Assembly: GCA_035527575.1 (NCBI GenBank)
Contig: DATLAD010000057.1
Span: 1-35,973, forward strand
DNA from: Dehalococcoidales bacterium
Lineage (GTDB): Bacteria; Chloroflexota; Dehalococcoidia; Dehalococcoidales; RBG-16-60-22
Direction: 5' to 3'
Length of the DNA: 35,973 nt
The notes below the pieces were generated by a model that was not told where the DNA came from, made no database searches, and saw only the letters and a list, made by a program, of their open reading frames with translations. The position numbers and the translations under genes are program-made. This document shows positions 9,283 through 33,435 of this stretch, one piece after another; position 1 is the first letter of the stretch, and each line of letters begins with the position of its first letter.

Positions 9283-11415
9283 ATGAGCGAGAAAAAGATT
9301 ATCAAGACCACCTGTAAAAGCTGCCACGGCGGCTGCGGCGTCCTGGTGACCGTCGAGGATGGGGTGATTACCCACATCGAAGGCAACCCGGACACGCCGA
9401 CCCGGGGCACGATGTGCTCCAAGGGGCTATCGAGCATCCAGCACATCAACCATCCCGACCGCCTTAAATACCCCCTGAAAAGGATGGGGAAAAGGGGGGA
9501 GGGGAAATGGCAGCGGATAAGCTGGGACGAGGCGCTGGATACCATCGAGAGCAAGATGAAGGAGTCCATCGAGAAATACGGGCCTTCATCCATAGCCGTT
9601 TCCCAGGGGACGGGGCGGGGCTACAACAGGTACACCCACCGCTTCGCACGTTCGATAGGCACGGCCAATATCATCACGCCCGGCTACATCTGCCACAGTC
9701 CGAGGCTGGGCCTCTACGGGCTGGTCACAGGGTACGGCCGTCTCTACTGCGACTATCACGGCTGGGGCGGGGAGTTCCCCAAAACGCAGATATCCTGGGC
9801 CAAACAGCTGGAAATAAGCAGCGCCGACTCCGAGATGGCGGTATGGTTCCTCAACTCGCTGAAGCACGTCAAGAACCTGATTGTTATCGACCCGCGGGAA
9901 ACAGCCCTCTCTTCGCGGGCGACACTATGGCTGCAAATCAGGCCGGGCACGGACGCCGCCCTGGCTCTGGCCATGATAAACGTCATTACCAACGAAGGCC
10001 TGTGGGATAAAGACTTCGTGGAGAACTGGACCTACGGCTTCGATAAGCTCAAAGAGAGAGTCCAGGAGTACACGCCGGAGCGTGTCGCCGAAATAACATG
10101 GTTAAAGGCGGATGACATTAGAAAAGCGGCCCGACTTTTTGCCGAGGACACGCCGGGCTGTATACAGGTCGGCAGCTCTCTGGAGCGGCAGGCCAACTGC
10201 GGCCAGACATTGAGGGCTATTATCTGCCTGCTGGGTGTCACCGGTAATATCGAGAGGCCGGGTAGCATGATGAGCTGGGTGGTGCCGGACACGGGGCTGC
10301 TGGAAGATTTTTACCTGGAAATACCCCTGACCGACCAAATGCGGAAGGGTATCGTGGGCAGCGACGAATACAAGATGGGCGCGGCGCGCACAGCTCATTC
10401 CGATAGTGTCATTAAGCAACTAATTAACGGAAATTCCGTAGTAAAAGTATGGTTCAGCGTCGGCGGGCAGCAGATACTCCACCTGGCGAACACCAGAGAG
10501 GTGATGCAGGCGCTGTTAAACGTCGACTTCCTGTTTCACGCCGACCAGTTCATGGGACCCATGGCGGAACACGCCGATATCGTCCTTCCGGCGGCGCACT
10601 GGCTGGAAATAGACGATATCTATAACATGCACCCTCGCTTTATGATAGAAGCCATTAATAAGACAGTCGACCCGCCGGGCGAGGCCTGGCCCGATAACAG
10701 GATATTCAACGAGCTTGGTAAAAGAATGGCTCCCCGGTACTGGTTTGAAAACGTCGAAAAGATGCTGGACTACACGGTGAGAAAGGCCAACCTGACCTGG
10801 AAAGAGTTCAGCCAAAAAGGCGTCATGGCCAGGATGGGCAAAGACCAGATTTACTACAAATACAAGACCGACTACTGGAAAAAAGGCGGCGGTTTCCCCA
10901 CCCCGACCGGCAAGATGGAACTCTATTCAACAGTGCTGGAAGACCTGGGGTACGACCCTCTGCCCTATTTCCAGGAGCCCGGCGAAAGTCCTGTTTCCAC
11001 GCCGGAACTGGCCAAAGAATACCCGCTTGTTCTTTCGACGGGATACCGCCAGCCCTTCTACTTCCTGTCGCAGTACCGGAATATCCCCTGGCTGCGCAGC
11101 TTTCAGAAAGACCCGGTGATGCAGATTCACCCGGATACGGCCAAGGGACTGGGCATCGAGGACGGCGACTGGGCCTGGATTGAGACGCCGAGGGGTAGAA
11201 TCAAGCAGAAAGCCAGGCTGTTCCCCGGCATTCACCCTGAAGTTGTCATGGCAACGGCCAACTGCTTTTATCCCGAGGAGCCGGGTCCGCTGCACGGTAT
11301 GCTGAAGTCCAACCCGAACGTGCTTACCTCTAACGACCACTGCGACCCCATGTACGGGTCGCCGGACCTCACGGCATTGTTATGTAAAGTGTACCGGGCG
11401 AAAGACGGCAGTTGA
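9283..11415 (+). CDS. molybdopterin (bis-MGD) oxidoreductase catalytic subunit, DMSO-reductase superfamily, no Tat signal
   Basis: 710 aa. The N-terminal FS0 cluster motif is CKSCHGGCGV...C (C-x2-C-x3-C-x27-C). The region KWQRISWDEALDTIESKMKESIEKYGPSSIAVSQG is typical of the family. The protein starts MSEKKIIKTTC with no RRxFLK motif. Confidence 0.85.
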   Translation: MSEKKIIKTTCKSCHGGCGVLVTVEDGVITHIEGNPDTPTRGTMCSKGLSSIQHINHPDRLKYPLKRMGKRGEGKWQRISWDEALDTIESKMKESIEKYGPSSIAVSQGTGRGYNRYTHRFARSIGTANIITPGYICHSPRLGLYGLVTGYGRLYCDYHGWGGEFPKTQISWAKQLEISSADSEMAVWFLNSLKHVKNLIVIDPRETALSSRATLWLQIRPGTDAALALAMINVITNEGLWDKDFVENWTYGFDKLKERVQEYTPERVAEITWLKADDIRKAARLFAEDTPGCIQVGSSLERQANCGQTLRAIICLLGVTGNIERPGSMMSWVVPDTGLLEDFYLEIPLTDQMRKGIVGSDEYKMGAARTAHSDSVIKQLINGNSVVKVWFSVGGQQILHLANTREVMQALLNVDFLFHADQFMGPMAEHADIVLPAAHWLEIDDIYNMHPRFMIEAINKTVDPPGEAWPDNRIFNELGKRMAPRYWFENVEKMLDYTVRKANLTWKEFSQKGVMARMGKDQIYYKYKTDYWKKGGGFPTPTGKMELYSTVLEDLGYDPLPYFQEPGESPVSTPELAKEYPLVLSTGYRQPFYFLSQYRNIPWLRSFQKDPVMQIHPDTAKGLGIEDGDWAWIETPRGRIKQKARLFPGIHPEVVMATANCFYPEEPGPLHGMLKSNPNVLTSNDHCDPMYGSPDLTALLCKVYRAKDGS

Positions 11416-15719: not shown

Positions 15720-15931
15720 GTTTTACTCCTTATATGTTTTTTTAACCATAATCAGTCTATTTGCCTTGAAAGATAAAGTCAAATGAGGCAAAGATATATC
15801 TTTACCTCACGCCCTGTGTCCCCCTCCCGCTGCGCACTCCCCTTCTGGGTGGTGGGTAAACAATTTCGATTAGACACGGATGCCTTGAGTGTGGAGGTTG
15901 AGAGAAGATATAAAGGAGGGGGGATAATTTT

Positions 15932-15961
15932 TTGACAAAGAGGGAATCTTGAACTTATGAT
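15932..15961 (+). promoter_or_regulatory. sigma70-type promoter TTGACA-18nt-TATGAT
   Basis: TTGACA at 15932-15937 and TATGAT at 15956-15961, about 30 nt upstream of the AAGGAGAG RBS and the ATG at 15992. Confidence 0.5.
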
Positions 15962-15991
15962 AAGCATATCCGTCTGAAAGGAGAGTCTGAG

Positions 15992-16327
15992 ATGTCTAAG
16001 AGTACGATACTGAACATTATAGGTACCGATTGCCCTGCCGAGATAGAAGCGAAGTTCAATAAATGGTACAACGAGGTTCATATTCCTTTATTGTTCAAAT
16101 ACAAGGGTATGAAGAAAGTTACGCGCTATCAACTGGCGGGTGAAAGCAAGGGGCAGGCCAAGTACCTGGCCATCTACGAGTACGAGACTAAAGAAGCCCT
16201 CGATGCCTTTTCAAATAGCCCGGAGTTAGCCGCCGCCATAGAGGAGATGCAGGGGACATGGAAGGGCGGGGGAATCGATATTAAATGGAGGGCCACATAC
16301 GAGCCGATAAAGACGTGGGAACGGTAA
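15992..16327 (+). CDS. small dimeric alpha/beta-barrel protein (EthD/DUF4286-like)
   Basis: 111 aa with a good RBS. The FNKWYNEVHIPLL motif and the size are typical of EthD/DUF4286-like ferredoxin-fold proteins. Function is uncertain. Confidence 0.55.
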   Translation: MSKSTILNIIGTDCPAEIEAKFNKWYNEVHIPLLFKYKGMKKVTRYQLAGESKGQAKYLAIYEYETKEALDAFSNSPELAAAIEEMQGTWKGGGIDIKWRATYEPIKTWER

Positions 16328-16437
16328 ACGCGGATAACAGAAGGTCTAATAGATATATATTTGTAAGAATGCGGACGCTTGGGTTACTATAGGAGCAGGA
16401 ACTTACGAACGGTTTTTAATACTTTCTTAGAGGGCGA

Positions 16438-16755
16438 TTGATGACCGTAACGGAAACCAGCTGGTGGGATTCTTCGGCAACGTTCAGACGGTGCACTGCA
16501 GAGAAAGCTTCTTTTATTCTCCTGTGCGGGTTCGACCTTACTCTGACGATACTGGCGATGTACCTCGGCCTGGCTGAGCTAAATCCTTTTGTCAGGTACA
16601 TCATTCGCATACCAGCGTTACTTCTGATGATCAAGCTGTTTATACCTGTTCTCATCGCGTGGCTGATGCCGGGGAAGCTTCTCTGGCCGTCAATCGGGCT
16701 GCTAATCCTGGTCGTCGTCTGGAATATCAAGGAACTGGTTGTCTTTTTGCTGTAA
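16438..16755 (+). CDS. small membrane protein, DUF5658-like
   Basis: 105 aa with three hydrophobic helices. It carries the D-x-x-LT...G-x-x-E-x-NP motif (FDLTLTILAMYLGLAELNPF). Start is TTG at 16438 or ATG at 16441. Confidence 0.55.
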   Translation: MMTVTETSWWDSSATFRRCTAEKASFILLCGFDLTLTILAMYLGLAELNPFVRYIIRIPALLLMIKLFIPVLIAWLMPGKLLWPSIGLLILVVVWNIKELVVFLL

Positions 16756-16760
16756 GGTCT

Positions 16761-17492
16761 TCACCGTCCCCCGGCGCGTACGAGAGGTTCTTCTTTCTGA
16801 TACAAACTACCCATCGTTTCCAGGTAAAGCCGGGCGGCACTGACCCTCAGGTGTTTCGAATTATAACCGGGGTCTGCCTTGAGCTTGCTGTACATGCTGT
16901 TGAGGTGGTGCTCGACCGTCTTGATATCGATGAACAGGGTATTGGCGATGGCCGAATTAGTGTAGCCCTGCGAGAGAAGGCTGAGGATTTCCAGCTCACG
17001 GGTGGTGAGCTGCTTGAGGAAGGGGCACTCCGGCTTTCCGGCGAACATAAAAGTAGCCAGCGGCGGGTCGAGGATAACCTGCCCCTGGCTAACCGCCAGA
17101 ATCATCCGGCACAGCTGGTCGACTTTATCCAGGGATTGTTTCAGGAAGAGCGCCATACCGCTTTCTCCGCAGAGCGCCAGCCGGCGCAGTAATTCAATGT
17201 CCTGCGAGCTGTAAAATATGATTAAAATTACTATTCCCATCCTGGGATAGCTGTTCCTGATTCGCTCCAGCTCTTCAATAATATCTATATTAAGCTTCTT
17301 GACACTCAGTAACAAAACGTCAGGATTAAGTTCAGACGCCGCCCGCTCCATAGCTCCTGTATTGCTGTTTTCCGAGACTCGCAGTATTTCAATATTGGAC
17401 CGGTTGGGCAGGACATAACGGTACATCTCCCGGTAAATTTCCTGCTCTTCCACTACGTATAAGCTTACGGTTTCTGACTTTTCCTGAATCAT
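16761..17492 (-). CDS. LuxR/NarL-family transcription regulator with an atypical (Asp-less) receiver domain
   Basis: The C-terminal HTH_LuxR reads LTTRELEILSLLSQGYTNSAIANTLFIDIKTVEHHLNSMYSKL. The N-terminal receiver fold is retained, but the acidic pair is EE (VVEEQE) and the phospho-acceptor position reads PDVLLLSVKKL, with Ser63 where Asp is expected. Transcribed divergently from the first archaellin gene. Confidence 0.75.
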   Translation of the reverse strand: MIQEKSETVSLYVVEEQEIYREMYRYVLPNRSNIEILRVSENSNTGAMERAASELNPDVLLLSVKKLNIDIIEELERIRNSYPRMGIVILIIFYSSQDIELLRRLALCGESGMALFLKQSLDKVDQLCRMILAVSQGQVILDPPLATFMFAGKPECPFLKQLTTRELEILSLLSQGYTNSAIANTLFIDIKTVEHHLNSMYSKLKADPGYNSKHLRVSAARLYLETMGSLYQKEEPLVRAGGR

Positions 17493-17888: not shown

Positions 17889-18491
17889 GTGATGCACAGA
17901 TTGGTAAAAAGGGTATTCAGGAGCCAGCGAGGCATCACCGGAATAGAGACAGCCATCATTCTCATCGCCTTCGTCATCGTGGCCTCGGTGTTTGCCTATG
18001 TCGTGCTTTCGGCAGGTCTGTTTTCCACCCAGGTAGCAAAGGAAGCTATTCATTCCGGCCTGGAAGAAGCTAAAAGTACCATAGAGATAAAAGGCAACAT
18101 TTACGGGAAAATGGAGAACAGTGTGCTGACGGAAGTCTACTTTACCGTAGCCACCACCACGGGAGGCGATATGATTGACTTCACCGACACTTCCTCGGCG
18201 AACGCTTCCAACCTCGTCGTTATCTCATACAGCGATGCGTATCAGATATTCCCGACGGTCAACTGGACGATGACCAAGCTGAACACAGATGCCCCGGATA
18301 ACCTGCTCGACAAGAATGAGCTGTTCATGATTACGGTCGATTTAACCTGTGTCAGCGCCAATGCTACCGACGAGCAGAAACCGGGTCCGTACCATAAGTT
18401 CCAGCTGGAAGTGAAGCCGCCGGTCGGCGCCGTGCTCGTTCTTGAGCGCACCGTTCCCGCCAGGGTCGACCAGATTGTCAACCTTTATTAA
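17889..18491 (+). CDS. arlB: archaellin (archaeal flagellin) paralog 1
   Basis: The class III signal peptide and processed N-terminus read ...RSQRG|ITGIETAIILIAFVIVASVFAYVVLSAGLFSTQ, with K/R at -2, G at -1 and G at +3. The conserved C-terminus is ERTVPARVDQIVNLY. GGGAGG RBS; GTG at 17889 or ATG at 17892. Confidence 0.85.
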   Translation: MMHRLVKRVFRSQRGITGIETAIILIAFVIVASVFAYVVLSAGLFSTQVAKEAIHSGLEEAKSTIEIKGNIYGKMENSVLTEVYFTVATTTGGDMIDFTDTSSANASNLVVISYSDAYQIFPTVNWTMTKLNTDAPDNLLDKNELFMITVDLTCVSANATDEQKPGPYHKFQLEVKPPVGAVLVLERTVPARVDQIVNLY

Positions 18492-18524
18492 TTAATGTAA
18501 TCAGATTCTGTCAGTGATACCAAT

Positions 18525-18830
18525 TTGAAGATGTGGGAAGTTATAAGAGGAATCACCGACCGTAAACAAGATAGCAAAGATAGCGCTGCCCTGCTACGGA
18601 TGGCTTCTGCCTTCATTGCGGGTATGGTGATAACGGCAGCCCTGACATACGTTCCAATTATTACCGAAGTATTATCCCACGAGCCAAGCCATGAGTCCGC
18701 CGTGCCGGAGCCATCAGATGCCCCGGATTTACTAAAGCCCGACAGCGGCCCTGACGGGAGCGACCCGGCGAAACATTATTTATACGAACTGGTTTACGCC
18801 CCCCTGGAGGAGGCGATACTTTCTGGTTAA
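18525..18830 (+). CDS. hypothetical single-pass membrane protein between the archaellin genes (doubtful)
   Basis: 101 aa ORF (TTG at 18525 or ATG at 18531) with one hydrophobic helix (AFIAGMVITAALTYVPII) and a Pro/Ser/Asp-rich tail. No recognizable RBS. Confidence 0.3.
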   Translation: MKMWEVIRGITDRKQDSKDSAALLRMASAFIAGMVITAALTYVPIITEVLSHEPSHESAVPEPSDAPDLLKPDSGPDGSDPAKHYLYELVYAPLEEAILSG

Positions 18831-19026
18831 ACGGTATAAACGTACTCGATGAGCCAGTAAACCTGCGCAAAGGAGGGTGAACGGTAATGTGAATATAAGG
18901 GGTAACAACTGAAGATACAAAGCTAAGGAATGGAAGGGGGTGATGTCCACAGTCATAAAATTAAGTAGCTAAAAAGAAAGAAAGGGAACATCTTAACTCG
19001 AAAAATTACCACTAAAGGGAGGAAAA

Positions 19027-19671
19027 ATGATTAAGAAAATTTTGAGACATGAGAAAGGTATTACTGGTCTGGAGACCGCCATTATCCTGATTGCCTTCGT
19101 CGTGGTAGCCGCGGTATTCGCCTACACGGTACTCTCCGCCGGCCTGTTCGCCACCCAGAAGAGCCAGGAGGCTGTCTACTCCGGGTTGAAGGAAGCCCAG
19201 AGCACCCTGGAAATCAGAGGCGCAGTTACCGCAATAGCCGATAGCATCGGTGACGACGGCACCATCAAGCAGATAAGCTTTATCGTAACCAGCGTGCTTG
19301 GCGGCGAGCCAATTGACTTCACCGAACCACTAGCAGGCGCAAGTAACAATGGCACGTCCTCCACCGATAGCAACAACAAGGTAGTCATCAACTATATTGA
19401 CGAGAACCAGAATGTTAATGACCTCTACTGGACTATTACCAAGCTGGGGAACAGTGACGATGACAACCTGTTGGAGCAATACGAGAAGTTCCAGGTAACC
19501 GTAGGTAGCGATAACCTAACTACCAACGGCGGCAACCTTGTTGACGCTCTCAGCACCGACTTAACAGTTAACAAGACCTTCAACCTAGTGGTGCTGACAC
19601 CGGCCGGTGCGGTGCTGCAAATTGAGCGCACCACGCCACCCTACATTGACCAAATAATGAACCTGCACTAA
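19027..19671 (+). CDS. arlB: archaellin (archaeal flagellin) paralog 2
   Basis: Reads MIKKILRHEKG|ITGLETAIILIAFVVVAAVFAYTVLSAGLFATQKSQEAVYSGL, with C-terminus ERTTPPYIDQIMNLH. It has a very strong RBS (AAAGGGAGGAAAAATG) and is followed by a GC-rich hairpin. Confidence 0.9.
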   Translation: MIKKILRHEKGITGLETAIILIAFVVVAAVFAYTVLSAGLFATQKSQEAVYSGLKEAQSTLEIRGAVTAIADSIGDDGTIKQISFIVTSVLGGEPIDFTEPLAGASNNGTSSTDSNNKVVINYIDENQNVNDLYWTITKLGNSDDDNLLEQYEKFQVTVGSDNLTTNGGNLVDALSTDLTVNKTFNLVVLTPAGAVLQIERTTPPYIDQIMNLH

Positions 19672-19820: not shown

Positions 19821-20297
19821 GTGGACAAAGTCATAACTACAGCTCTACTTATCATAGCGGGAGTTGTGTGTATGATATTTGTCTTTAACAGTGTCTATCC
19901 GATGATAAACCGCTCCAGCCAGGCCATGGTGAGCATGGCCGAACAGGTTGACGAGCGGATGAAGAGCCGGATAAACATTGTTCATGCGGCAAATTCCGCC
20001 AACCGTACGTCCGTTTACCTGTGGATAAAAAACGTGGGCACCCAGCGCATCGTGACCGTTGAAGACAGCGACCTGTTCCTTGGCCAGGAGGACAATTTCG
20101 AGCGCATTCCGTATTCGGCTGATGCGGGAGAAACCTATCCGCAATGGTACTTCAACCTGGAAAACGATACCGAGTGGCAGACAAGTGCCACTCTAAAAAT
20201 TACTGTAACCTACAGCAGCGACCCCGGCGCGGGGACTTATTGGACCAAGTTTATTATACCGAACGGAATATCCGACGAGTATTACTTCAGCATGTAA
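19821..20297 (+). CDS. ArlF/ArlG (FlaF/FlaG) family archaellum stator-like protein
   Basis: 158 aa, GTG start after GGAGG. It has an N-terminal uncleaved hydrophobic helix (VITTALLIIAGVVCMIFVF) followed by a roughly 120 aa beta-rich soluble domain. Size, architecture and position after the archaellins fit FlaF/FlaG. Confidence 0.6.
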   Translation: MDKVITTALLIIAGVVCMIFVFNSVYPMINRSSQAMVSMAEQVDERMKSRINIVHAANSANRTSVYLWIKNVGTQRIVTVEDSDLFLGQEDNFERIPYSADAGETYPQWYFNLENDTEWQTSATLKITVTYSSDPGAGTYWTKFIIPNGISDEYYFSM

Positions 20298-20308
20298 CGG
20301 AGTAACTT

Positions 20309-20824
20309 ATGGAGACAGCCATTGTCTCAATAATATGTATAGCCCTTATAGCGTTCGGCGGCATGACAATGTCCCGGGGATTCATGACGTCGGTTGATGC
20401 CAGCACGACGGGACTCGAGGAGATAGGACAGCGAGATGAAACGATAATGAGGACGGAGCTGACTCCCGTTAGCGCCGGGCAGCCCTCGGCCAACACCCTG
20501 GAGGTCGTGCTGGAAAACAGCGGCCAGACCAAGCTGGCTGATTTTGATAAGTGGGATATCATCGTCCAGTACTACGACGGCACCGGCACCTATCACGTGG
20601 AATGGCTCCCCCATGCCGAAGCGGTACTGGGCGATAACGAATGGGAAGTGGCCTGGATACGGCTTAACGACGGGGCCGAAGTATTTGAGCCGAACGTGTT
20701 AAACCGGCAGGAGCAGATAATGATAAGGGCCCAGCTCAACCCGTCGGTTGGTGCCGCCACTACCAATATGGTGATTGTGGCCACTCCCAGCGGGATTACG
20801 GCTTCAACTTATTTCTCGCCGTAA
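20309..20824 (+). CDS. ArlF/ArlG-like protein, tandem paralog A
   Basis: 171 aa. It has a pilin-like hydrophobic N-terminus (METAIVSIICIALIAFGG) followed by a beta-domain. By eye it is about half identical to the first 170 aa of the next gene (shared GQTKLA-F-KWD-IV-YYDG-G-YH-EWLP...GDNEW...FEPN-LN). Confidence 0.6.
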   Translation: METAIVSIICIALIAFGGMTMSRGFMTSVDASTTGLEEIGQRDETIMRTELTPVSAGQPSANTLEVVLENSGQTKLADFDKWDIIVQYYDGTGTYHVEWLPHAEAVLGDNEWEVAWIRLNDGAEVFEPNVLNRQEQIMIRAQLNPSVGAATTNMVIVATPSGITASTYFSP

Positions 20825-20897
20825 TAAGGCGTCCCGTATTCTGAGTAAAACAGGAGGCATAAATTAGTACTAACCAGGACAATAAGGAGCAAATGAT

Positions 20898-21992
20898 ATG
20901 GCGACGATTGCCGTCTCCATCATATGTATAGTGATGATAGTAGTAGGAGGTATGACGTTGTCCCAGGGAATCCTCACTTCAGCGGACTCTGCCGCCCTCA
21001 GCGTCGAGGAGATTAGCCTGAGAGAGGGAGAATTGGCCAGAACCAACCTGGATACAGTCAGCGCCGCCGAGCTTTCCTGGGCGGACCTCCTGAGGGTAAC
21101 CGTGGTAAATACCGGCCAGACCAAGCTGGCCAGCTTCAACAAGTGGGACTTTATCGTCAATTATTACGATGGCAACGGCGTCTATCATACGGAATGGCTC
21201 CCTTACACCAGCGGAGTGCTCGGTGACAACGAGTGGCAAAAGGCAAGAATCGGCCTTAACGGGCCGATAGAGTTCTTCGAGCCGAACATACTGAACCCCG
21301 AAGAGGAACTGGTAATACTGGCCAGGCTTAACCCGCTCCCGGGTGATGCTACAACCGGCGATGTAACCATAGCCAGTCTCAACGGGGTCTGTGACTCCAT
21401 TTCTTTTTCCAACCCCGGCTACACGCTGCTTAATCCCCACTCGGAAAATACCACCATTGCCAGTACCAGGTATTACCAGCTAGAAGAAGCCGCCCCGTCC
21501 GATGGCCCCGCAATGACGGTAATTACAGACATCTTTCAAGTTGAAGAATCAGGAAGAAAGATGATGCACAGCGAAAATGAGCCATCCAGACCGGCAAGAC
21601 ATATATTCCCGCTGACCGGAATCAGCCAGGTCCCGGCAGCCACCTGGACGGCCTATTACCGCTGCCTCGCCTCAGGACTGAGTAACATCCAGGACAATGA
21701 GGTTAATTTTGATATCGACGTAGTGATTCGGAAGGCGGACGGCACCGTAAGAACAACGCTGGCCACGAATGTAGCCAATGCCTATCTACAAAGTATCGAA
21801 CTGGATAGTTGGCTGACTAAAAGCGCCACCTATAACTTCCCCGGTTATACGGTGGTCGATGATAGCGACTACCTCGAGATAGTCTACTACGGGGAAATAA
21901 CAGGTAATGGTTCCGACACAGAGGGATACCTGCTGATAAGCATTGACGACGATACCCTGCCTCTGGCTGACCAGACCAGGATAGAAGGTTAA
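20898..21992 (+). CDS. ArlF/ArlG-like protein, tandem paralog B, with a roughly 190 aa C-terminal extension
   Basis: 364 aa. Residues 1 to about 171 are collinear with the preceding gene product. Residues from about 172 to 364 (nt 21411..21992) have no counterpart in it and no motif I recognize. Confidence 0.6.
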   Translation: MATIAVSIICIVMIVVGGMTLSQGILTSADSAALSVEEISLREGELARTNLDTVSAAELSWADLLRVTVVNTGQTKLASFNKWDFIVNYYDGNGVYHTEWLPYTSGVLGDNEWQKARIGLNGPIEFFEPNILNPEEELVILARLNPLPGDATTGDVTIASLNGVCDSISFSNPGYTLLNPHSENTTIASTRYYQLEEAAPSDGPAMTVITDIFQVEESGRKMMHSENEPSRPARHIFPLTGISQVPAATWTAYYRCLASGLSNIQDNEVNFDIDVVIRKADGTVRTTLATNVANAYLQSIELDSWLTKSATYNFPGYTVVDDSDYLEIVYYGEITGNGSDTEGYLLISIDDDTLPLADQTRIEG

Positions 21993-22005: not shown

Positions 22006-23514
22006 ATGCTGGAAAAGTTAAAAAAATTAATATCTAGAAGCGACGATAGCGGTAAGAGCAAGAATAAAACCAACCGCCTGATGAGCTTCGACCTGTTCTA
22101 CCAGCTATCGTACATGTCAACGGTCGCTGCCGCCGGTGTGCCGCGCGACCAGATTTTTGAGCGTTCCGCCGAGCTCCAGTGCTCCTCTGCCGAGTATTTT
22201 AAGCATGTAGAGCTGGCACGCAAGCGGTTGAAATACGATTACGCCCGGGCCTGCCGCGCCGTGGGAGAACCGCTCAAGGAAGCAGAGGTCAAGGGGCTCC
22301 TCCTCCGCTTTTCCAGCTCCCTCATCTCCGGCGAACCCGAAGCCGATTTTCTCACGAGAGAAGCCCATGCGCGGGCCGAAGACTATGAAAACGAGTACAG
22401 TAGAAGCCTGGAATCGATGAAAATGTGGACCGACGCCTATGTCTCCCTCATCCTTTCGGCGGTCCTGATAGTAGTCATCGGGATTGTCGCTACCATGATA
22501 TGGAAAATAGAAACGATGCTTATTATAGCCATGGCATTTATCTCAATCGCCACCACCGTCATCGGCGTCTGGCTGATATGGCTGGTCTCGCCGAAAGAGA
22601 CCACGGTCTTACGCTGGGCCGGCTCAAAAGAACAAAAGCTCGCCAGCAGGCTCTTTAAACCCGTCCTGCCGATTGTCGTGACCGTCGGCGCCCTCTTTTT
22701 ACTGACCGGGCAGAACCTGGGACTGGCATTTCTGGTTATCGCGGGACTGGTCTTCCCGGTCGGTATTATCATGACGCGGGATGACCGGAAGGTATACAAG
22801 CGTGATGACGAAGTGGGAACATTCCTGCGTTCACTGGGCGGTGTTTGTACGGCGCTGGGGACAACGGTGAATTCCGCCCTGGGCCGCCTCGACCTCGATG
22901 CCATCAACTTGCTGAGGAGTTCGGTTAAGAACCTGCACACGAGACTCACCGCCGGCATCAAGTCAAGGTTGTCCTGGAAGTTATTCATCGACGAGACCGG
23001 AAGCGAACTGGCCCACCGCAGCGTGGGCATGTTCTATGACGCCATCGAAGTGGGCGGCTCGGCAGGACAGGCCGGGCAGCACGCCGCGGCCTTCGCCAAC
23101 AGGGTCGCGCTTCTCAGGGCGAGACGAAGGACGATATCCGGTCCTTTCCGCTGGCTCTGCATGACCATGCACGCTGCCGTCGTGGTGATACTGGTCTTTA
23201 TCACCGAGGTCATCGTGGCTTTCGGCGGTATGTTAACCAAAGCCCAGGAGTCAATGCCGACAGTATCCGGGGGCCCTTCGCTGAGCTCTTTATCCAGCTT
23301 CAACCTCTCCGGACTGGATCTCATGCAACAGATGGTGTTGCCTCTGGTCCTGATATTCACGGTAGCCAATGCTATCGTACCCAGTCTGGCGGAGGGGGGT
23401 AGTAAATATAAAATTTTAAACAATCTGGGATTTACCGCGGCTATTTCCGGTATATGCCTTCTCATCCTGCCGGCATTAGCCAGTACGTTATTTACATCCG
23501 TTTCTCAAATATAA
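22006..23514 (+). CDS. arlJ: archaellum assembly platform membrane protein ArlJ (FlaJ; TadC/PilC-like)
   Basis: 502 aa. The cytoplasmic N-domain reads FDLFYQLSYMSTVAAAGVPRDQIFERSA, as in FlaJ. A duplicated T2SS-F-like architecture has multiple TM helices. Confidence 0.8.
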   Translation: MLEKLKKLISRSDDSGKSKNKTNRLMSFDLFYQLSYMSTVAAAGVPRDQIFERSAELQCSSAEYFKHVELARKRLKYDYARACRAVGEPLKEAEVKGLLLRFSSSLISGEPEADFLTREAHARAEDYENEYSRSLESMKMWTDAYVSLILSAVLIVVIGIVATMIWKIETMLIIAMAFISIATTVIGVWLIWLVSPKETTVLRWAGSKEQKLASRLFKPVLPIVVTVGALFLLTGQNLGLAFLVIAGLVFPVGIIMTRDDRKVYKRDDEVGTFLRSLGGVCTALGTTVNSALGRLDLDAINLLRSSVKNLHTRLTAGIKSRLSWKLFIDETGSELAHRSVGMFYDAIEVGGSAGQAGQHAAAFANRVALLRARRRTISGPFRWLCMTMHAAVVVILVFITEVIVAFGGMLTKAQESMPTVSGGPSLSSLSSFNLSGLDLMQQMVLPLVLIFTVANAIVPSLAEGGSKYKILNNLGFTAAISGICLLILPALASTLFTSVSQI

Positions 23515-23524
23515 GGAGGTAAAC

Positions 23525-23716
23525 ATGAACACAAATACTAATATCGGGACAGAAACCAGCCTTGACTCTGTCGAAGCCGAATTCCAGGAAGTAAGAGACG
23601 AATTGAAAGAGATACTCTTTGATATCCGTATTTACTTAATGGAAGCGCAAACCCCAATCCCCAACGACCTGGACCGGGAAAGGCTTCGTGAAGAGCTTGA
23701 AACGGAAAGGGGGTAA
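23525..23716 (+). CDS. small acidic coiled-coil protein, ArlC (FlaC)-like
   Basis: 63 aa with a strong RBS (AAGGAGG). The segment LDSVEAEFQEVRDELKEILFDIRIYLMEAQTP aligns with the N-terminus of the next gene product (LETIQDEIKLLKGELKQSLASVRDYLLNMELP). Confidence 0.55.
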   Translation: MNTNTNIGTETSLDSVEAEFQEVRDELKEILFDIRIYLMEAQTPIPNDLDRERLREELETERG

Positions 23717-23722
23717 AACATC

Positions 23723-24895
23723 ATGGCAGAAGATAAGAGACTCGAGACTATTCAAGATGAAATCAAGCTGCTGAAGGGGGAACTAAAGCAGTCACTGGCC
23801 AGCGTTCGAGATTACCTGCTTAACATGGAACTGCCTTCTTCAGAATTTTCCACCATCCTGGCGGCTCTCAGCACTGATGGTGAACAGAAAATAACCATGA
23901 AGGGCAGCTTCACCAACCCGCAAGATAACGCCCCTCGTGCGGAACCCCAGGATGAGCTTACCGAAACGGTGTCAGAGGACGCCGGCGGGGAGTCCGTCGA
24001 AGAAGAATCAGAAATGCCCGGAGAAGACGAGGACCTGATTGACGTGGAAGGGCCGCTCGGAAAAGAATCGGAGAGGCTCACCGACGATGATTTGATGGGC
24101 GAAGAGGCGGGCATTGCCCCTGAAGACGAACTGTTTTCCCCGCAAGACGCCATCGAAGACGAAGAACTCGGTGAACCCGAAGAACTCAGTGAACCCGAAG
24201 AACTCAGTGAACCCGAAGAACTCGGTGAACCCGAAGAACTCGGTGAACCCGAAGAACTCGGTGAACCCGAAGAACTCGGTGAACCCGAAGAACTCGGTGA
24301 ACCCGAAGAACTTTATGAACAGGATGAACCCATCACGCCAGAATCGGAGATGTCAGAGGAGGAACAGCCCGTGGGCAACGACAAGACTATTGCTACTGCT
24401 AATGCAGATGCCGATGAAATGAGCTCAGCCATACCGAAGGTCAACATGCTGGCCAATCTGATAAACTGGGCCTCCCGCGCCAAGAAAGAAATAGGCTACG
24501 ACCAGTTGCCCGTATTCCTGGAAGTCTATGGCATCAGCGGACACCTGTCTCAGGAGTTGAAAGACGTCATCCTGCACCTTTCCGAACTGACGGCGGAGCG
24601 TCCCGAGGTCGCCAACAACGCCGAAGTCTGGAGCCAGTTAATGCTGTCGCTGCACGGCATTCTCACGGGAGGCGATGCCCCGCTTCACCCGGTAATTCCG
24701 TTCTGGAGCGAAGCCAGCATCGCGGAAGAGCCGGCCGAGGAAGAGATAATCGAAGTAGACAAGCCCAGGGGAAAAAAAGTGCCGGTAAAACTGAAACTGG
24801 TATTCCCGAACGGTGACGGCAAGAGCAAAGAGTTTTGCATCGACCTCAATCCCGAGGAGGATAATGACGACTCTTCCAGCAAGCGCAAAAACTGA
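23723..24895 (+). CDS. ArlC/D/E (FlaC/D/E)-like archaellum motor-scaffold protein with an acidic repeat linker
   Basis: 390 aa with three parts: an N-terminal FlaC-like coiled coil, a long acidic low-complexity region including (EPEELG/S)x8, and a C-terminal region. The C-terminal region (IPKVNMLANLINWASRAKKEIGYDQLPVFLEVYGISGHLSQELKDVILHL) resembles the FlaD/E domain pattern. Confidence 0.6.
   Translation: MAEDKRLETIQDEIKLLKGELKQSLASVRDYLLNMELPSSEFSTILAALSTDGEQKITMKGSFTNPQDNAPRAEPQDELTETVSEDAGGESVEEESEMPGEDEDLIDVEGPLGKESERLTDDDLMGEEAGIAPEDELFSPQDAIEDEELGEPEELSEPEELSEPEELGEPEELGEPEELGEPEELGEPEELGEPEELYEQDEPITPESEMSEEEQPVGNDKTIATANADADEMSSAIPKVNMLANLINWASRAKKEIGYDQLPVFLEVYGISGHLSQELKDVILHLSELTAERPEVANNAEVWSQLMLSLHGILTGGDAPLHPVIPFWSEASIAEEPAEEEIIEVDKPRGKKVPVKLKLVFPNGDGKSKEFCIDLNPEEDNDDSSSKRKN
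24161..24322 (+). repeat. 18-bp tandem repeat GAAGAACTC(G/A)GTGAACCC, 8 full units plus 1 degenerate
   Basis: Read directly. The units are identical except for a G/A at position 10 in units 2-3. The array is in-frame inside 23723..24895 and encodes EELGEP/EELSEP. Confidence 0.95.
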
Positions 24896-24924: not shown

Positions 24925-25641
24925 ATGGCAACGACACAGAAAAAGAAAGAGTTCATAGTTACCGGCGTACCGGAAGTTGATGATAAGCTGGGCGGCGGTA
25001 TTCCCCTTGGTTCACTGTGCCTTATCGAAGGCCACTCTGACGCCGGAAAAAGTGTCTTATGCCAGCATCTGACCAACGGCACCCTGATTAATGGCGAGAT
25101 TTCGGTAGCGTATTACACTACGGAAAACAACATCAGAAGCCTGATAAGCCAGATGGAATCGCTGGCAATGTACGTACTGGACCACTTCCTGGCAGACCGC
25201 CTGCGGATTTACCCGTTAACCTTTCACAGTCATATGCAGGGCGGCCAAAAACCTTTTTATGTCCTGACACACCATTTTTCCAAACAGCCACAGGACTTCA
25301 AACTGATAATAGTGGACTCTATTACGCTGCTGGTGGCGCACAGCAACCCGGTAGCCATCATCGATTTCTTTTCCAGATGCAAGGGCTTATGTGATGAAGG
25401 TAAAACGATAATCGTGGTGGCGCATTCTTATGCTTTCGAGGAGGACATGCTTGCCCGGACCCGCTCATTATGCGACGCGCGTTTCAGGCTCCGCCTGGAG
25501 CAGGTCGGCGATAGCATGATAAAACTCATGGAGGTACTCAAGGTACGTGGCGCCGAGCGCCCCACCGGAGACGTGGTCAGTTTCAATATCGAACCCAAGA
25601 TTGGCATGCGGATAATCCCGCTTGCCAAGGCGAGAGTCTAG
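24925..25641 (+). CDS. arlH: ArlH (FlaH), KaiC/RecA-like ATP-binding archaellum protein
   Basis: 238 aa. The segment VPEVDDKLGGGIPLGSLCLIEGHSDAGKSVLCQHL contains Walker A (GHSDAGKS), and Walker B is KLIIVDSIT. Size and position immediately before the ArlI gene fit ArlH. Confidence 0.8.
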   Translation: MATTQKKKEFIVTGVPEVDDKLGGGIPLGSLCLIEGHSDAGKSVLCQHLTNGTLINGEISVAYYTTENNIRSLISQMESLAMYVLDHFLADRLRIYPLTFHSHMQGGQKPFYVLTHHFSKQPQDFKLIIVDSITLLVAHSNPVAIIDFFSRCKGLCDEGKTIIVVAHSYAFEEDMLARTRSLCDARFRLRLEQVGDSMIKLMEVLKVRGAERPTGDVVSFNIEPKIGMRIIPLAKARV

Positions 25642-25649
25642 GAGATTAA

Positions 25650-27449
25650 ATGCTTCGTCTGCCGTTTGAACTAAAAGCCTGCCCCGGGGAGTGCGGGAAG
25701 GAATGCGGGAACGCCACGGAAAAGTGCCCGGTATTCCAGAAAATCCCGGCCGAGTTCCAGGAGGTATGCAAGAAAAATCCGCATCTCCTCCAGTACCTGC
25801 ACATGCTTCCCGCGGATAAGATTGCCATTCCGCAGTACTACGAAAAAGTGACGCGGGCTTTAAAAGGCACCAAAAACCCCGACCTTATCTATAGTGTCGG
25901 CAGCGGGGTATTCGTTCATGTCCTGGCCAATCTTGAAGACATCAGGGACTACTATATCGCCGTGGAACCGAGCCTCATCGACCCGCAGGATAGCACCCTC
26001 GACGAGATAGAGTTGAAGCTTGCCGACTATGTCGAAGAGCTCGAGGGTATCGCCGACTCCTCAAAGCGTCTCGAAATCATCATGAGAATCGTCGACAGGA
26101 TTGTCGCGGTCAGCGGCTATAAAGCCCCCGAACCACAGCCGGACGCAAAGAAAGCCGACGCAGACAGTAAAAACGATACCAATAAAAAAGAGAGAAAACC
26201 TCTCTTCCTTAAGTCAAAAGGAAGCTCCAAGGGAAAGATACATATAACCAAGCTCCAGTATACCAGCCTCCGCTATCTGCTGCGGCGTAAGCTGGAAGGC
26301 ATGGGCCTCCTGGACCCCATGATACTGGACCCCAACATCGAAGATATTTCATGTTCCGGTCTCGGTAATATCTTTGTGGAGCATAAAATCTTCGGCGGTC
26401 TCAGGGCCAGCATCGGATTCGAGACCAACGAAGCGCTGGACAAATTCGTCATCGAGCTGGCCGAGGGTATCAAGCACCCGGTTACGTTCCGCGAACCGGT
26501 CGTCGACGCCACGCTGCCCGACGGCTCCCGTATCAATATCGTCTACGGCACCGACGTTTCCAAGCGGGGCAGCAACTTCACCATCAGGAAATTCAGCGAT
26601 ACGCCGCTGAGCATACTGGAGCTTATCCAGTTCGGCGCGCTTAACTACGACATGGCCGCTTACCTGTCCATAATACTCCAGGAAGGGATGAACGTCTGGG
26701 TATCCGGGGAAACGGCTTCCGGCAAAACAACCCTGATGAATGCGCTGACCACCTTTATCCCGCCCGAGTCGAAGATAGTAAGTATCGAAGACACCCCGGA
26801 AGTCCAGGTGCCACACCATAACTGGATTCGCGGGGTTACCCGCGGTTCCGCCAAGGATGCGGACTCCTCCGAGGTATCCATGTTCGACCTTCTCAAGGCT
26901 GCCCTGCGGCAGAGGCCCAACCTTATCATCATCGGCGAGATTCGTGGTGTCGAAGGGGCTATCGCCTTTCAGGCAATGCAAACCGGTCATGCCACGATGA
27001 GCACCTTCCACGCCGCCTCCGTATCCAAGCTCATCCAGCGTGTTACCGGCAACCCCATCAACGTACCCAAGACGTACGTGGACAATCTTAACGTCGTCGT
27101 TATCTGCCAGCAGGTCCGGCTGGCCAACGGCGGCCTGGCCCGGCGCCTGACCAGCATCAATGAAATCGTCAACTACGATTCGATAGCCGACTCGTTTTCT
27201 TTCATCGAGACCTTCTGTTGGAACCCTCTGAACGACACTTTTCTGTTCCGGGGTTTCCAGAACTCATACCTGCTGGAGAATAAAATCGCCCCCAGGCGCG
27301 GCCTGCCGGAAGAAAAAAGAAGGCAGATATACAAGGTATTAAAGCAAAGGTCTGACGTCCTGAAGCGTATTTGCGACCAGGGAAAAACTGATTTTTACGA
27401 AGTCTATGCAATATTATCCAAGGCGTACCGCGAGGGGTACTTCCGATAA
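25650..27449 (+). CDS. arlI: ArlI (FlaI) archaellum assembly/motor ATPase (type II/IV secretion NTPase family)
   Basis: 599 aa. It has Walker A (GETASGKTT), the Asp box and Walker B region (RQRPNLIIIGEIRG) and the His box (TGHATMSTFHA). The N-terminal Cys-rich segment and a Lys-rich insertion are unusual. Confidence 0.9.
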   Translation: MLRLPFELKACPGECGKECGNATEKCPVFQKIPAEFQEVCKKNPHLLQYLHMLPADKIAIPQYYEKVTRALKGTKNPDLIYSVGSGVFVHVLANLEDIRDYYIAVEPSLIDPQDSTLDEIELKLADYVEELEGIADSSKRLEIIMRIVDRIVAVSGYKAPEPQPDAKKADADSKNDTNKKERKPLFLKSKGSSKGKIHITKLQYTSLRYLLRRKLEGMGLLDPMILDPNIEDISCSGLGNIFVEHKIFGGLRASIGFETNEALDKFVIELAEGIKHPVTFREPVVDATLPDGSRINIVYGTDVSKRGSNFTIRKFSDTPLSILELIQFGALNYDMAAYLSIILQEGMNVWVSGETASGKTTLMNALTTFIPPESKIVSIEDTPEVQVPHHNWIRGVTRGSAKDADSSEVSMFDLLKAALRQRPNLIIIGEIRGVEGAIAFQAMQTGHATMSTFHAASVSKLIQRVTGNPINVPKTYVDNLNVVVICQQVRLANGGLARRLTSINEIVNYDSIADSFSFIETFCWNPLNDTFLFRGFQNSYLLENKIAPRRGLPEEKRRQIYKVLKQRSDVLKRICDQGKTDFYEVYAILSKAYREGYFR

Positions 27450-28045: not shown

Positions 28046-28260
28046 ATAAGATATACCGCGCAGTCCGGGGATTCCTGCTCACGGGACTGAGGGAATTCCC
28101 CGATAAAATAGGGGGTTATCATGGTTGCCTGCCATGGTACAGCAGTAGTAGCCTGAAACTGAAGGGCAACCGGGCAAAATTGCCCGCAATACCTGTTGTC
28201 GTTGATGAAGCCATGGCTAGGAAGCGATCGTACCCTTTAAACCAGGGAGGCCGAAGATGA
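28030..28260 (+). CDS. possible small basic protein filling the arl/kinase gap (doubtful)
   Basis: 76 aa ORF. It overlaps the upstream stop by 16 nt and ends in an ATGA overlap with the kinase start. It has no clear RBS and contains several rare-looking codons, and the region also folds into hairpins. Confidence 0.2.
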   Translation: MAEKLNKIYRAVRGFLLTGLREFPDKIGGYHGCLPWYSSSSLKLKGNRAKLPAIPVVVDEAMARKRSYPLNQGGRR

Positions 28261-29759
28261 GTTACAAACGCAATAAAAAAAGCTGGTGGGCAAATAAACA
28301 CCTGCGGTACATCATAACCATCATGGTGCTTTGTTCCATCATTTACTATCTGCCCGTTATCGGCGGCTTATTCGGCTGGACATCCATGGAGAACTCCCTC
28401 AACAGCCTCCACGATTTCTACGGGATTGACTTTCTCGGTCTGATATTCTTCGCACCGGTGGTATACACCGCCTATGTGCTCGGCGTCATACCGGCTGTAC
28501 TTTCCGCCCTTATCGCCATGTTAATCCTGCTACCTTACGCCATACTGATAGACACCTATCCCAACGCCCTGTTCAAACCTACGGCCTTCGTTATCATCCT
28601 CAGCGCCGTCGGAGCGGCCATCGCTTTGCTTCAGAAAAGCGAGGCAGAGCACCGCCAGAGGATGAAAGAGATGAAATGCCTCTACGATACCGGCAAGGCG
28701 GTGGAAGAGAGCGGCTCCATAGACGAGTTCCTCGCGAAGGTGGTGGCCCTTATTCCCCACGCCATGCAGTCCCCCGAAGAAACCAATGTCAGAATCACCT
28801 TCCAGGACCAGGTCTACAAAAGCCCCGGTTTCCAGAAATCTCTAAGTAAGATAACGGAGAACCTGGTGGTGGGCGGCGAAGCGATGGGGCTCGTGGAGAT
28901 ATACTCCTCCCGCGATAACCCTTATTTAAAGAAGAGAAACCACCTGACCAAGACCCTCGTGGAGAGAATCGGCGGGGCTATCCGGCAGCTGGAACTGGAG
29001 CAGTCGTTACAGGGCTACTACGAACAGCTTGAAGACGAGGTCGAAAGCCGGACGAAGGACCTGGAGCACGTACAGCAGAAGCTCATCCGCTCCGAGAGGC
29101 TGGCCGCCGTCGGCGAGCTGGCCTCGGGCGTCGGCCACGAACTGCGCAACCCGCTGAACGTGATAAGGAACTGCGCCTATCTGCTCAATATGGCCATCAC
29201 CGATAAAGGCGACGAGGAGGCTGCGAATACCCTGAAAGTCCTGGACAAGCAGATTGACATCGCCAACAAAATCGTCACCGACCTGCTGGACTTCACCCGC
29301 ATTACGCCGCCATCGCCGGACATAGTCGACCTCAACCATTTAATCAACGAAAGCCTGTCATGGATATCCGTACCGGAGCACGTCACCGTGAAGGCCAACC
29401 TCAACGGCCATCCCATGAAGGTCAGGACGGATGCCGAGCAGATAAGCCGCGCCTTCACCAACATCATTTCCAATGCCATACAGGCCATGAACAGGAAAGA
29501 CGGAAAGCTGGACATAGACACCGGCACGGAGGACAGCTTTATCTGGATTAAAATCCAGGACAACGGCTGCGGCATACCGGAAGAGAACATGAGCAAGATA
29601 TTCGAGCCGCTCTTTACCACCAAGCCTAAGGGTATCGGCCTGGGGCTGGCCATTACGAAAAGGCTCATCGAGCAAAACGGAGGCAAAATAGAAGTCGCCA
29701 GCCAGGCAGGCCAGGGCACAACCTTTACCGTGAAGCTACCGTTAGAAAAAAGGAGATAG
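28257..29759 (+). CDS. membrane sensor histidine kinase (TM - GAF-like - HisKA - HATPase_c)
   Basis: 500 aa with about 4 N-terminal TM helices. Motifs: H-box ELASGVGHELRNPLN, N-box ISNAIQAM, G1 DNGCGIP, G2 GIGLGLAI. Confidence 0.85.
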   Translation: MSYKRNKKSWWANKHLRYIITIMVLCSIIYYLPVIGGLFGWTSMENSLNSLHDFYGIDFLGLIFFAPVVYTAYVLGVIPAVLSALIAMLILLPYAILIDTYPNALFKPTAFVIILSAVGAAIALLQKSEAEHRQRMKEMKCLYDTGKAVEESGSIDEFLAKVVALIPHAMQSPEETNVRITFQDQVYKSPGFQKSLSKITENLVVGGEAMGLVEIYSSRDNPYLKKRNHLTKTLVERIGGAIRQLELEQSLQGYYEQLEDEVESRTKDLEHVQQKLIRSERLAAVGELASGVGHELRNPLNVIRNCAYLLNMAITDKGDEEAANTLKVLDKQIDIANKIVTDLLDFTRITPPSPDIVDLNHLINESLSWISVPEHVTVKANLNGHPMKVRTDAEQISRAFTNIISNAIQAMNRKDGKLDIDTGTEDSFIWIKIQDNGCGIPEENMSKIFEPLFTTKPKGIGLGLAITKRLIEQNGGKIEVASQAGQGTTFTVKLPLEKRR

Positions 29760-29766
29760 ACCTGAA

Positions 29767-30528
29767 ATGAATGACGAACCGACGATTCTCGTAGTCGATG
29801 ATAACGAGGATTTACTGGAGACATTTGCCATGATTCTGAAGCGGCGCGGTTTTTACGTGGAAACGGCGAGCAACGGGGCATCCGCCGTAAACAAGTTTAA
29901 AGAACAGGACTTCGACGTTACGCTGATGGACATCGTCATGCCCGAGATGAACGGCGTGGAGGCCTTCCGTAAAATAAAGGAGACGCATCCCGAAGCCTCT
30001 ATCATACTGATGACGGCCTATTCCGACGAAGACCTGCTTCAGTCAGCCAAAGACGAGGGCGTTCGCCGGATTATACAGAAGCCGATAAGGATAGAGCAGC
30101 TGATAAAGCTGATTAACGAGGCAGCCAGCAGCGAGCCGATTCTCGTCATCGATGACGACGCCGATATCTGTGATACCCTGACACAGGTATTGAAACGGCA
30201 GGGGCACGAGGTATTGACGGCGGGCAGCGGTGAAGAGGCAATTATCATAGCGCAGGAAAAAGCCTGCCAGATAGCATTTATCGATGTCAAGCTGCCGAAC
30301 ATAGACGGACTGGAGACCCTCCTCCGCCTGAAGGAAATCAACCCGGATATCCTCACTGTCATGATGACCGGCTTCCGTAACGAAGTTAAAGAAGCCCTGG
30401 ACAAGGCACAGAAAGCTTCGGCGATTACCTGCCTTTACAAACCCTTCGACCCCGCCGAAGCCGCCGATATAGTGAAGAAAATCGGTAAAAAGGCACGTCA
30501 TTCCAGGAGAGTAGATGAAGGCAAATGA
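29767..30528 (+). CDS. tandem-receiver response regulator (REC-REC, no output domain)
   Basis: 253 aa. REC1 reads ILVVDDNEDL...DVTLMDIVMPEMNG...KP. REC2 reads ILVIDDDADI...IAFIDVKLPNIDG...YKP. Both keep the acidic pair, the acceptor Asp and the Lys. Confidence 0.85.
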   Translation: MNDEPTILVVDDNEDLLETFAMILKRRGFYVETASNGASAVNKFKEQDFDVTLMDIVMPEMNGVEAFRKIKETHPEASIILMTAYSDEDLLQSAKDEGVRRIIQKPIRIEQLIKLINEAASSEPILVIDDDADICDTLTQVLKRQGHEVLTAGSGEEAIIIAQEKACQIAFIDVKLPNIDGLETLLRLKEINPDILTVMMTGFRNEVKEALDKAQKASAITCLYKPFDPAEAADIVKKIGKKARHSRRVDEGK

Positions 30529-32131: not shown

Positions 32132-32144
32132 AGGGGGAACAGCT

Positions 32145-32840: not shown

Positions 32841-32871
32841 AAGAGATACACTCTCAATCAGAAAGAAACGA

Positions 32872-32898
32872 GGGGAGCCGTTATGGCTCCCCTTTTTT
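32872..32898 (+). terminator. rho-independent terminator
   Basis: GGGGAGCC-GTTAT-GGCTCCCC followed by TTTTTT, 32 nt after the regulator stop. Confidence 0.8.
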
Positions 32899-32985
32899 AT
32901 TTGTGTATATCTCTCTCTTAGGGGTAAAATCAGGTACAACCTATCGTTACTTTTTCCATTTTCGGCGCCAGGAGGTCTTCATAAT

Positions 32986-33423: not shown

Positions 33424-33435
33424 GGAGAAAAACAA

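Follow-up and report, generated by a model that had tools for sequence, protein, structure and literature searches.

A rotary motor requires a stator that is fixed to something rigid. In Sulfolobus, ArlG forms a stalk, and ArlF caps this stalk and binds the S-layer. Archaea carry one ArlF and one ArlG, as an earlier note on the DNA considered here had stated and as has been reported (PMC4858521); for some Chloroflexota, 'duplication of arlF' was described together with an arl2 gene order in which arlG stands before arlF (PMC12488501). Chloroflexota lineages that gained an archaellum by horizontal transfer have been published (PMC3971608, PMC12488501), and the window analyzed in this study, i.e., the whole 35,973-nt stretch of contig DATLAD010000057.1 from a Dehalococcoidales bacterium (assembly GCA_035527575.1), is from such a lineage. 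A complete archaellum operon occupies 17.9–27.4 kb of the window on the forward strand, and within it three consecutive open reading frames (ORF1, ORF2, and ORF3) code for a predicted ArlG, a predicted ArlF, and a second, longer ArlF paralog (ArlF2) that ends in an additional domain of 193 amino acids (aa).

The locus resembles the described archaellum loci of Chloroflexota (Sivabalasarma et al. 2025, PMC12488501) in its kind, its arlG–arlF order, its phylum, and its class. The earlier note had called the C-terminal domain of the tandem duplicate novel. The arl2-type loci in Chloroflexota and the duplication of arlF are already known; for the conserved ArlF paralog bearing a predicted jelly-roll and for the uncatalogued family to which this domain belongs, no description was found in the literature searched, nor any mention of a C-terminal extension of ArlF in the available parts of the text and supplements of PMC12488501. 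By analogy with Sulfolobus, ORF1–3 would constitute the extracellular stator set of a Dehalococcoidia-type archaellum, with the jelly-roll of ArlF2 acting as an envelope adaptor, a reading to which we assign a probability of roughly 0.5. Stator anchoring in Chloroflexota other than L. aerophila was stated as an open question (PMC13319060). For L. aerophila (Litorilinea) itself, a PilO-LysM/PilN pair was proposed as the envelope adaptor; this window contains no such pair.

The arlG, arlF, and arlF2 genes

The three genes and the extension lie as follows:

19821–20297, forward strand: predicted arlG (ORF1), 158 aa, GTG start; N-terminal hydrophobic helix followed by a FlaG-like beta-sandwich
20309–20824, forward strand: predicted arlF (ORF2), short copy of canonical length, 171 aa; assigned by its family profile against FlaF
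20898–21992, forward strand: arlF2 (ORF3), long ArlF paralog, 364 aa; helix at aa 2–48, FlaF-like beta-sandwich at aa ~50–171, predicted jelly-roll at aa 172–364
21411–21992, forward strand: C-terminal extension of arlF2, 193 aa (aa 172–364); all-beta jelly-roll in a domain-only model

The gaps between the genes are short (11 nt for arlG–arlF, 73 nt for arlF–arlF2, and 13 nt from arlF2 to the downstream arlJ). Three ArlF/G-like genes had been noted earlier, and the three forward-strand ORFs were indeed found at these positions, but the trio is better described as one ArlG and two ArlF than as an undifferentiated set. ORF1 scored weakly as a single sequence (Arch_flagellin 30.9 bits, NCBIfam ArlF 27.0 bits, and NCBIfam ArlG 25.1 bits, the last one below the curated equivalog cut-off of 110 bits), and with 25.1 bits for ArlG against 27.0 bits for ArlF, such scores cannot separate F from G. 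Its family profile, built from 8 orthologs, matched S. acidocaldarius FlaG in a profile search of the PDB (5tug/6pbk, E = 1.4e−7). The match spans the whole soluble domain (query residues 30–156, chain residues 15–135) and was the sole significant one, the next ones having E > 0.4; the similarity to FlaG (5tuh, 5tug) is nevertheless low. Orthologs of ORF1 in the related loci L003–L013 are 75–85% identical to it, and its relationship to ORF2 is only distant (20% identity, E = 0.002; hhalign E = 0.004), as is that to ORF3. On these profile data, ORF1 is predicted to be a divergent ArlG (FlaG).

For ORF2, the family profile likewise had a single significant PDB match, S. acidocaldarius FlaF (4p94, E = 2.7e−7), while the sequence taken singly stayed below both cut-offs (Pfam FlaF_Ig-like 26.0 bits against 28.4, NCBIfam ArlF 18.6 bits against 110). 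It has orthologs in every complete related locus and is likewise assigned, as a divergent member, to ArlF (FlaF). ORF3 shares 53% identity with ORF2 over all 171 aa of the latter (E = 1e−59), and the alignment contains all blocks that had been quoted for the pair (SIICI, GQTKLA.F.KWD.IV.YYDG, EWLP, GDNEW, FEPN.LN, and LNP), so that the proposed tandem paralogy is borne out. Scores of ORF3 as a single sequence were also under the curated cut-offs (NCBIfam ArlF 17.8 bits against 110, Pfam FlaF_Ig-like 15.2 bits against 28.4), and FlaF was the only PDB match of its family profile (E = 0.011). In the AlphaFold model of ORF3 (predicted local distance difference test, pLDDT, 81.6; predicted template modelling score, pTM, 0.76), a helix over residues 2–48 precedes the beta-sandwich, and a Foldseek search against the PDB returned FlaF as the top three matches (4p94/4zbh, E = 2.7e−6, target-normalized template modelling score, TMt, 0.73–0.83), with archaellins and FlaG ranking behind. 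ORF3 is therefore an ArlF paralog with a C-terminal extension. The FlaF/FlaG-type beta-sandwich that the earlier note had expected was obtained for the N-domain of ORF3, the only one of the three proteins to be modelled; the identities of ORF1 and ORF2 rest on their profile matches to the solved FlaG and FlaF.

In all three proteins, a hydrophobic helix forms the very N-terminus, and a class III signal peptide is lacking (the N-terminus of ORF2 is METAIVSIICIALIAFGG and that of ORF3 MATIAVSIICIVMIVVGG). ArlF and ArlG have been published as lacking this signal peptide (PMC13319060), and the trio's agreement with this supports the assignments, as does the position of ORF1 ahead of arlF, which agrees with the arl2 layout described in Chloroflexota. 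ORF2 and ORF3 thus share with S. acidocaldarius FlaF (4p94, 4zbh; with FlaG 5tug, 6pbk) the N-terminal hydrophobic helix without class III signal peptide, the Ig-like beta-sandwich, and a location beside arlG in an archaellum operon, and they differ from it by an identity of only ~20%, by being present in two copies, and by their bacterial host. ArlF2 also carries the extra 193-aa domain, which is not part of the curated models of ArlF (of 137 and 112 positions). Altogether, ORF1–3 are divergent family members recognised only at the level of profiles and folds.

In a species-level genome collection, the loci closest to this one all came from metagenome-assembled genomes (MAGs) of Dehalococcoidales, Dehalococcoidia, or Chloroflexota. 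Nine MAG loci with enough flanking sequence share the operon order, starting at a response regulator on the reverse strand and ending at arlI, with two or three arlB copies each, and the arlG–arlF–arlF2 order recurs in L002–L013 (Dehalococcoidia/Dehalococcoidales MAG contigs). A homolog search with ORF3 returned 292 sequences. Among the best 120 of these, almost all were ~344–372 aa long and covered 94–100% of the query, the exceptions in length being one 314-aa fragment and two 418-aa proteins; the named organisms were Chloroflexi/Chloroflexota, and a few proteins were labelled FlaF by IMG. The 364-aa architecture is hence kept across Dehalococcoidia MAGs and is not unique to this window. An assembly or frameshift fusion artefact was considered and rejected, given the same length in nearly all listed homologs and on independent MAG contigs. 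In a neighbor-joining tree of the N-domains, short and long copies formed separate ortholog groups, and therefore the duplication predates the divergence of these lineages; the tree gives no order in which the long and the short form arose.

Fold and distribution of the C-terminal domain

The third gene's C-terminal domain had been called unrelated to the rest of the protein and not assignable to any family, which was confirmed. The idea that it duplicates the Ig domain of ArlF within the same protein was rejected (hhalign against the ArlF domain, E = 0.6); the extension gave no Pfam family even at E ≤ 10, and none was found in NCBIfam, PHROG, or, at the profile level, the sequences of the PDB. 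Modelled by itself from 61 aligned sequences, the extension was predicted with confidence (pLDDT 96.5) as an all-beta domain of 12 strands. A close solved structural homolog was sought in the PDB, and only generic jelly-rolls were returned as weak matches (E 1e−5 to 1e−3, query-normalized template modelling score, TMq, ≤ 0.59), namely birnavirus VP2, TNF/C1q-like proteins, the N-domain of the BC2L-C lectin, and the jelly-roll of cocaine esterase (TMq ~0.55). In BFVD, which holds predicted viral structures, a matching region was found in tail-fibre-like proteins of uncultured tailed phages (root-mean-square deviation 3.3–4.2 over 170–200 columns). As modelled, the extension is a beta-sandwich of the jelly-roll type with no close relative among the solved structures.

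Several acidic residues of the extension are invariant (E183, D202, D324, and D350), and some glycoside hydrolase families are jelly-rolls of ~190–250 aa. Both facts would suit a small beta-jelly-roll enzyme, a glycoside hydrolase or lyase in type, by which the wall is opened for stator or filament. We consider such an enzyme highly improbable, as no hydrolase family was recovered in Pfam or NCBIfam, nor among the top 50 fold matches.

When the domain-only profile was searched against 1.84 billion representatives, it recovered 262 representative clusters, 120 of them at E ≤ 1e−30. The extension is thus part of an uncatalogued domain family of ~260 clusters that is common to surface and phage tail proteins. 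Most carriers are large proteins (500–2100 aa) in which the domain is internal or near the N-terminus, accompanied by DUF2341, fn3, PKD, and CarboxypepD_reg domains, and some, on bacterial contigs, have a signal peptide or a transmembrane/membrane anchor. The domains of these DUF2341/fn3/PKD surface proteins and of phage tail-module proteins are homologous to that of ArlF2 (E down to 1e−59, ~40% identity) and share with it the invariant motifs ADGT, YTVVD..DYLEI, and IDD.TL..DQTR. Unlike ArlF2, the surface and phage carriers have neither the ArlF-like helix nor the beta-sandwich, lie outside archaellum loci, and usually place the domain N-terminally, before Ig-like repeats. For instance, one carrier (L021) is encoded next to hrcA-grpE-dnaK-dnaJ on a bacterial contig of 427 kb, and another adjoins lexA. 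On the former contig (L021 8001–14590), six small genes come after the one for a 508-aa membrane-anchored protein with the domain; weak Ig-like or cohesin-like matches in three of them suggest a surface-structure gene cluster. In phage contexts, ~250-aa homologs with ~40% identity and a 917-aa protein were found on virus-like or IMG/VR contigs. The gene in L018 (9980–12733) belongs to a tail module, with tail-fibre, minor tail, and tape measure genes directly around it. L014 has two copies (10001–10843 and, on the reverse strand, 15759–17249), of which one is a fusion with fn3 and DUF2341, and further virus-like or IMG/VR loci are L016 (10001–10657) and L019 (3627–7664). Since most of its carriers are large extracellular proteins or are encoded in phage tail modules, the extension is a mobile module, extracellular in nature, found in bacteria and their phages.

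Fusions to ArlF are few among the 262 clusters (P0149, P0150, P0152, P0167, P0168, and some fragments), and those with an organism name were all from Chloroflexota, specifically Dehalococcoidia in the representative-cluster search. No archaeal carrier of the domain, and hence no archaeal ArlF with the extension, was found in this search of 1.84 billion representatives, which did not survey archaeal ArlF directly. The possibility raised earlier, that the extension is a common feature of archaeal ArlF, is not supported, considering how few clusters are fused to ArlF and that the curated ArlF models span 112–137 positions. As the named ArlF fusions were all from Chloroflexota and the examined carriers other than ArlF were in bacterial or phage contexts, the domain appears to have been acquired on the bacterial side.

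The ratio of nonsynonymous to synonymous substitution rates (dN/dS) is ~0.1–0.25 in both halves of ArlF2, which makes the extension a constrained coding region under purifying selection. Together with the length kept in the listed homologs and the confident fold, this indicates that the extension is functional.

A putative envelope adaptor and its alternatives

By analogy with Sulfolobus, ArlG would build a stalk that traverses the extramembrane space, with subunits of the ArlF type as its cap. The FlaF-like beta-sandwich of ArlF2 could keep its contact with ArlG or ArlF, so that ArlF2 joins the cap, while the predicted jelly-roll would project distally and bind the outermost wall layer, be it an S-layer-like glycoprotein or a wall glycan. 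Such a contact would give the motor a fixed point for exerting torque on the filament. The jelly-roll itself would stem from the pool of extracellular modules of bacteria and phages, recruited once the Chloroflexota had received the archaellum, and its later divergence would have outpaced that of the other parts of the operon.

Several observations make an envelope adaptor plausible. Fusion to DUF2341, fn3, PKD, and CarboxypepD_reg domains, the signal peptides or transmembrane anchors of carriers, and the occurrence in phage tail modules mark the extension as an extracellular module of a binding type. As ArlF is the wall-contacting subunit in archaea, a conserved ArlF2 with such a domain would be a concrete adaptor candidate. 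If the idea is correct, it would represent a lineage-specific grip of the archaellum stator on a non-archaeal wall, distinct from the PilO-LysM route proposed for Litorilinea, and domain accretion would have helped a horizontally acquired machine to fit a new envelope.

Reports on the envelope of these lineages conflict. The premise of the earlier note, that a bacterium does not have the archaeal envelope, is doubtful: Dehalococcoidales and SAR202 were reported to have lost dcw (division and cell wall) genes, and the wall of D. mccartyi was described as S-layer-like and resembling that of Archaea (PMC10608941), whereas, according to another survey (PMC13319060), peptidoglycan synthesis is encoded by 235 of the 244 Chloroflexota with an archaellum. 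If the wall is S-layer-like, the need for an adaptor would stem from an S-layer protein unlike that of the donor, and not from the lack of an S-layer.

This conflict in the literature on peptidoglycan in these lineages is one of several points that weigh against an envelope adaptor. No wall-binding signature (LysM, SLH, PG_binding, OmpA-like, or catalogued carbohydrate-binding modules) was detected in the extension at Pfam E ≤ 10. The structural search for wall- or carbohydrate-binding folds, suggested in the earlier note, yielded a confident model but, as matches, generic jelly-rolls with low TM scores, the BC2L-C lectin being one of the weak hits. The domain is usually N-terminal in its phage and large-protein homologs, and the N-terminus of tail fibres is often the end that attaches to the virion and not the receptor-binding one. 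Lastly, divergent genes combining an ArlF N-domain with the predicted jelly-roll also occur outside archaellum loci (L010 6739–7833; P0167 at L020 2545–3618; P0168 at L023 2980–4601).

These orphan genes adjoin Zn-uptake/Fur-like or ATP-binding cassette (ABC) transporter genes, and one of them (P0168, from a Dehalococcoidia MAG), truncated by the end of its contig, adds a DUF2341 domain. Because L010, P0167, and P0168 lie outside archaellum loci, the ArlF plus jelly-roll family may not be strictly a motor part. ArlF2 could then be a membrane-anchored surface adhesin or cell–cell contact protein, standing on a stalk made of the helix and Ig domain derived from ArlF, and would be a passenger of the operon without being a stator part. 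In line with this, the same architecture is found beside Zn or ABC transporter genes, DUF2341 has been linked to pilus-tip adhesins (PMC4858521), and the C-domain is common in large adhesin-like proteins. We regard an adhesin as unlikely, however, as arlF2 stands with short gaps between arlF and arlJ in every complete related locus and its N-domain is 50–85% identical to those of its orthologs, comparable with arlF. In addition, the orphan copies are on short MAG contigs, and an archaellum locus may be present elsewhere in those genomes.

Binding could also be directed at the archaellum instead of the wall: at the point where the filament passes through the wall, the jelly-roll might grip, e.g., the ArlG stalk or the glycosylated filament and serve as an assembly factor, a bushing, or a collar. 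Bacterial archaellins were reported to be O-glycosylated (PMC12488501), jelly-roll folds include lectins (cf. the BC2L-C match), and the C-domain, like the archaellins, evolves comparatively fast within the locus. In Sulfolobus, though, ArlF binds the S-layer and not the filament, and we consider a collar distinctly improbable.

Apart from the acidic ORF described below, the extension is the most divergent part of the operon. Compared with the nearest relative (L001), nucleotide identity drops from 0.83–0.92 in the N-domain to 0.60–0.71 across 21485–21916 and rises again to 0.77–0.96 in arlJ; the synonymous rate (dS) is ~1.0 in the C-domain against 0.3–0.4 in the flanks, with a dN/dS of ~0.23 in the block, values to be taken as a lead and not a result given the short segments and a dS near saturation in other pairs. 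Since dS is raised as well as dN, the 21485–21916 block seems to have a different history, e.g., cassette-like recombination, and not just relaxed constraint. The ~3-fold higher dS relative to the flanking genes would also be explained if the C-domain was shaped mainly by interplay with phages, either as a phage receptor or as a decoy derived from phage tail proteins, and the ~40% identical homologs in IMG/VR viral contigs and tail modules point the same way. Against this, an identity of 40% denotes an old relationship and not a recent transfer, and purifying selection (dN/dS ~0.2) fits a conserved cellular role, so that we rate a C-domain shaped mainly by phages as very improbable. For the preferred envelope adaptor, the corresponding history would be that the cap protein was duplicated after the transfer and that one copy was re-tooled with a bacterial or phage jelly-roll, now a fast-diverging and possibly recombining cassette; we put this forward tentatively, at somewhat less than even odds.

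The remaining operon and its surroundings

The gene order of the operon is arlB (two copies), arlG, arlF, arlF2, arlJ, a 63-aa ORF, an acidic 390-aa ORF, arlH, and arlI. Besides the genes listed above, the following features were annotated:

16761–17492, reverse strand: LuxR-type response regulator, divergent, upstream of the operon (Pfam GerE, E = 1.2e−13)
17889–18491, forward strand: arlB1, archaellin with class III signal peptide (Pfam Arch_flagellin, E = 8e−31; N-terminus ...RG/ITGIETAIILIAF)
19027–19671, forward strand: arlB2, archaellin with class III signal peptide (Pfam Arch_flagellin, E = 4e−24)
22006–23514, forward strand: arlJ, membrane platform (NCBIfam ArlJ/FlaJ, E = 1.4e−115), beginning 13 nt past the arlF2 stop
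23525–23716, forward strand: conserved 63-aa ORF between arlJ and arlH, kept in all related loci
23723–24895, forward strand: conserved, very acidic 390-aa ORF between arlJ and arlH, kept in all related loci
24925–25641, forward strand: arlH (NCBIfam FlaH, E = 2.6e−74, over the curated cut-off)
25650–27449, forward strand: arlI, motor ATPase (NCBIfam archaellum ATPase FlaI, E = 3.4e−196, over the curated cut-off)

Both ArlB proteins have the class III signal peptide motif G/ITG(I/L)ETAIILIAF. The 63-aa and 390-aa ORFs occupy the slot where genes of the arlC/D/E type are expected; neither had a significant match in Pfam or NCBIfam, the sole trace being FlaC_arch at E = 0.059 for the 63-aa ORF. 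The best-conserved part of the acidic 390-aa protein is its C-terminal third. Within its gene, 8.5 near-perfect tandem copies of an 18-nt unit were observed at 24160–24312, encoding EPEELG/EPEELS hexapeptides, and the copy number probably varies, because the region aligns with gaps against L001.

The operon is flanked by genes of bacterial type, including a TRAP (tripartite ATP-independent periplasmic) transporter, LuxR-type and OmpR-type response regulators, and histidine kinases. Orthologs of the LuxR-type regulator, 77–87% identical, are present at the same position in L002, L004, L006, L007, and L011. Downstream of arlI, a cluster of histidine kinases and response regulators, one of them OmpR-type, extends over 28257–34475 on the forward strand. 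No che genes were seen within the window, so the archaellum may be under two-component regulation.

The two arlB genes are separated by a 536-bp gap (18492–19026). It holds a 101-aa ORF with a TTG start (18525–18830) that has no homolog in any related locus. Several of the related loci carry three arlB copies, so an archaellin gene may have been lost here, leaving the gap as its remnant.

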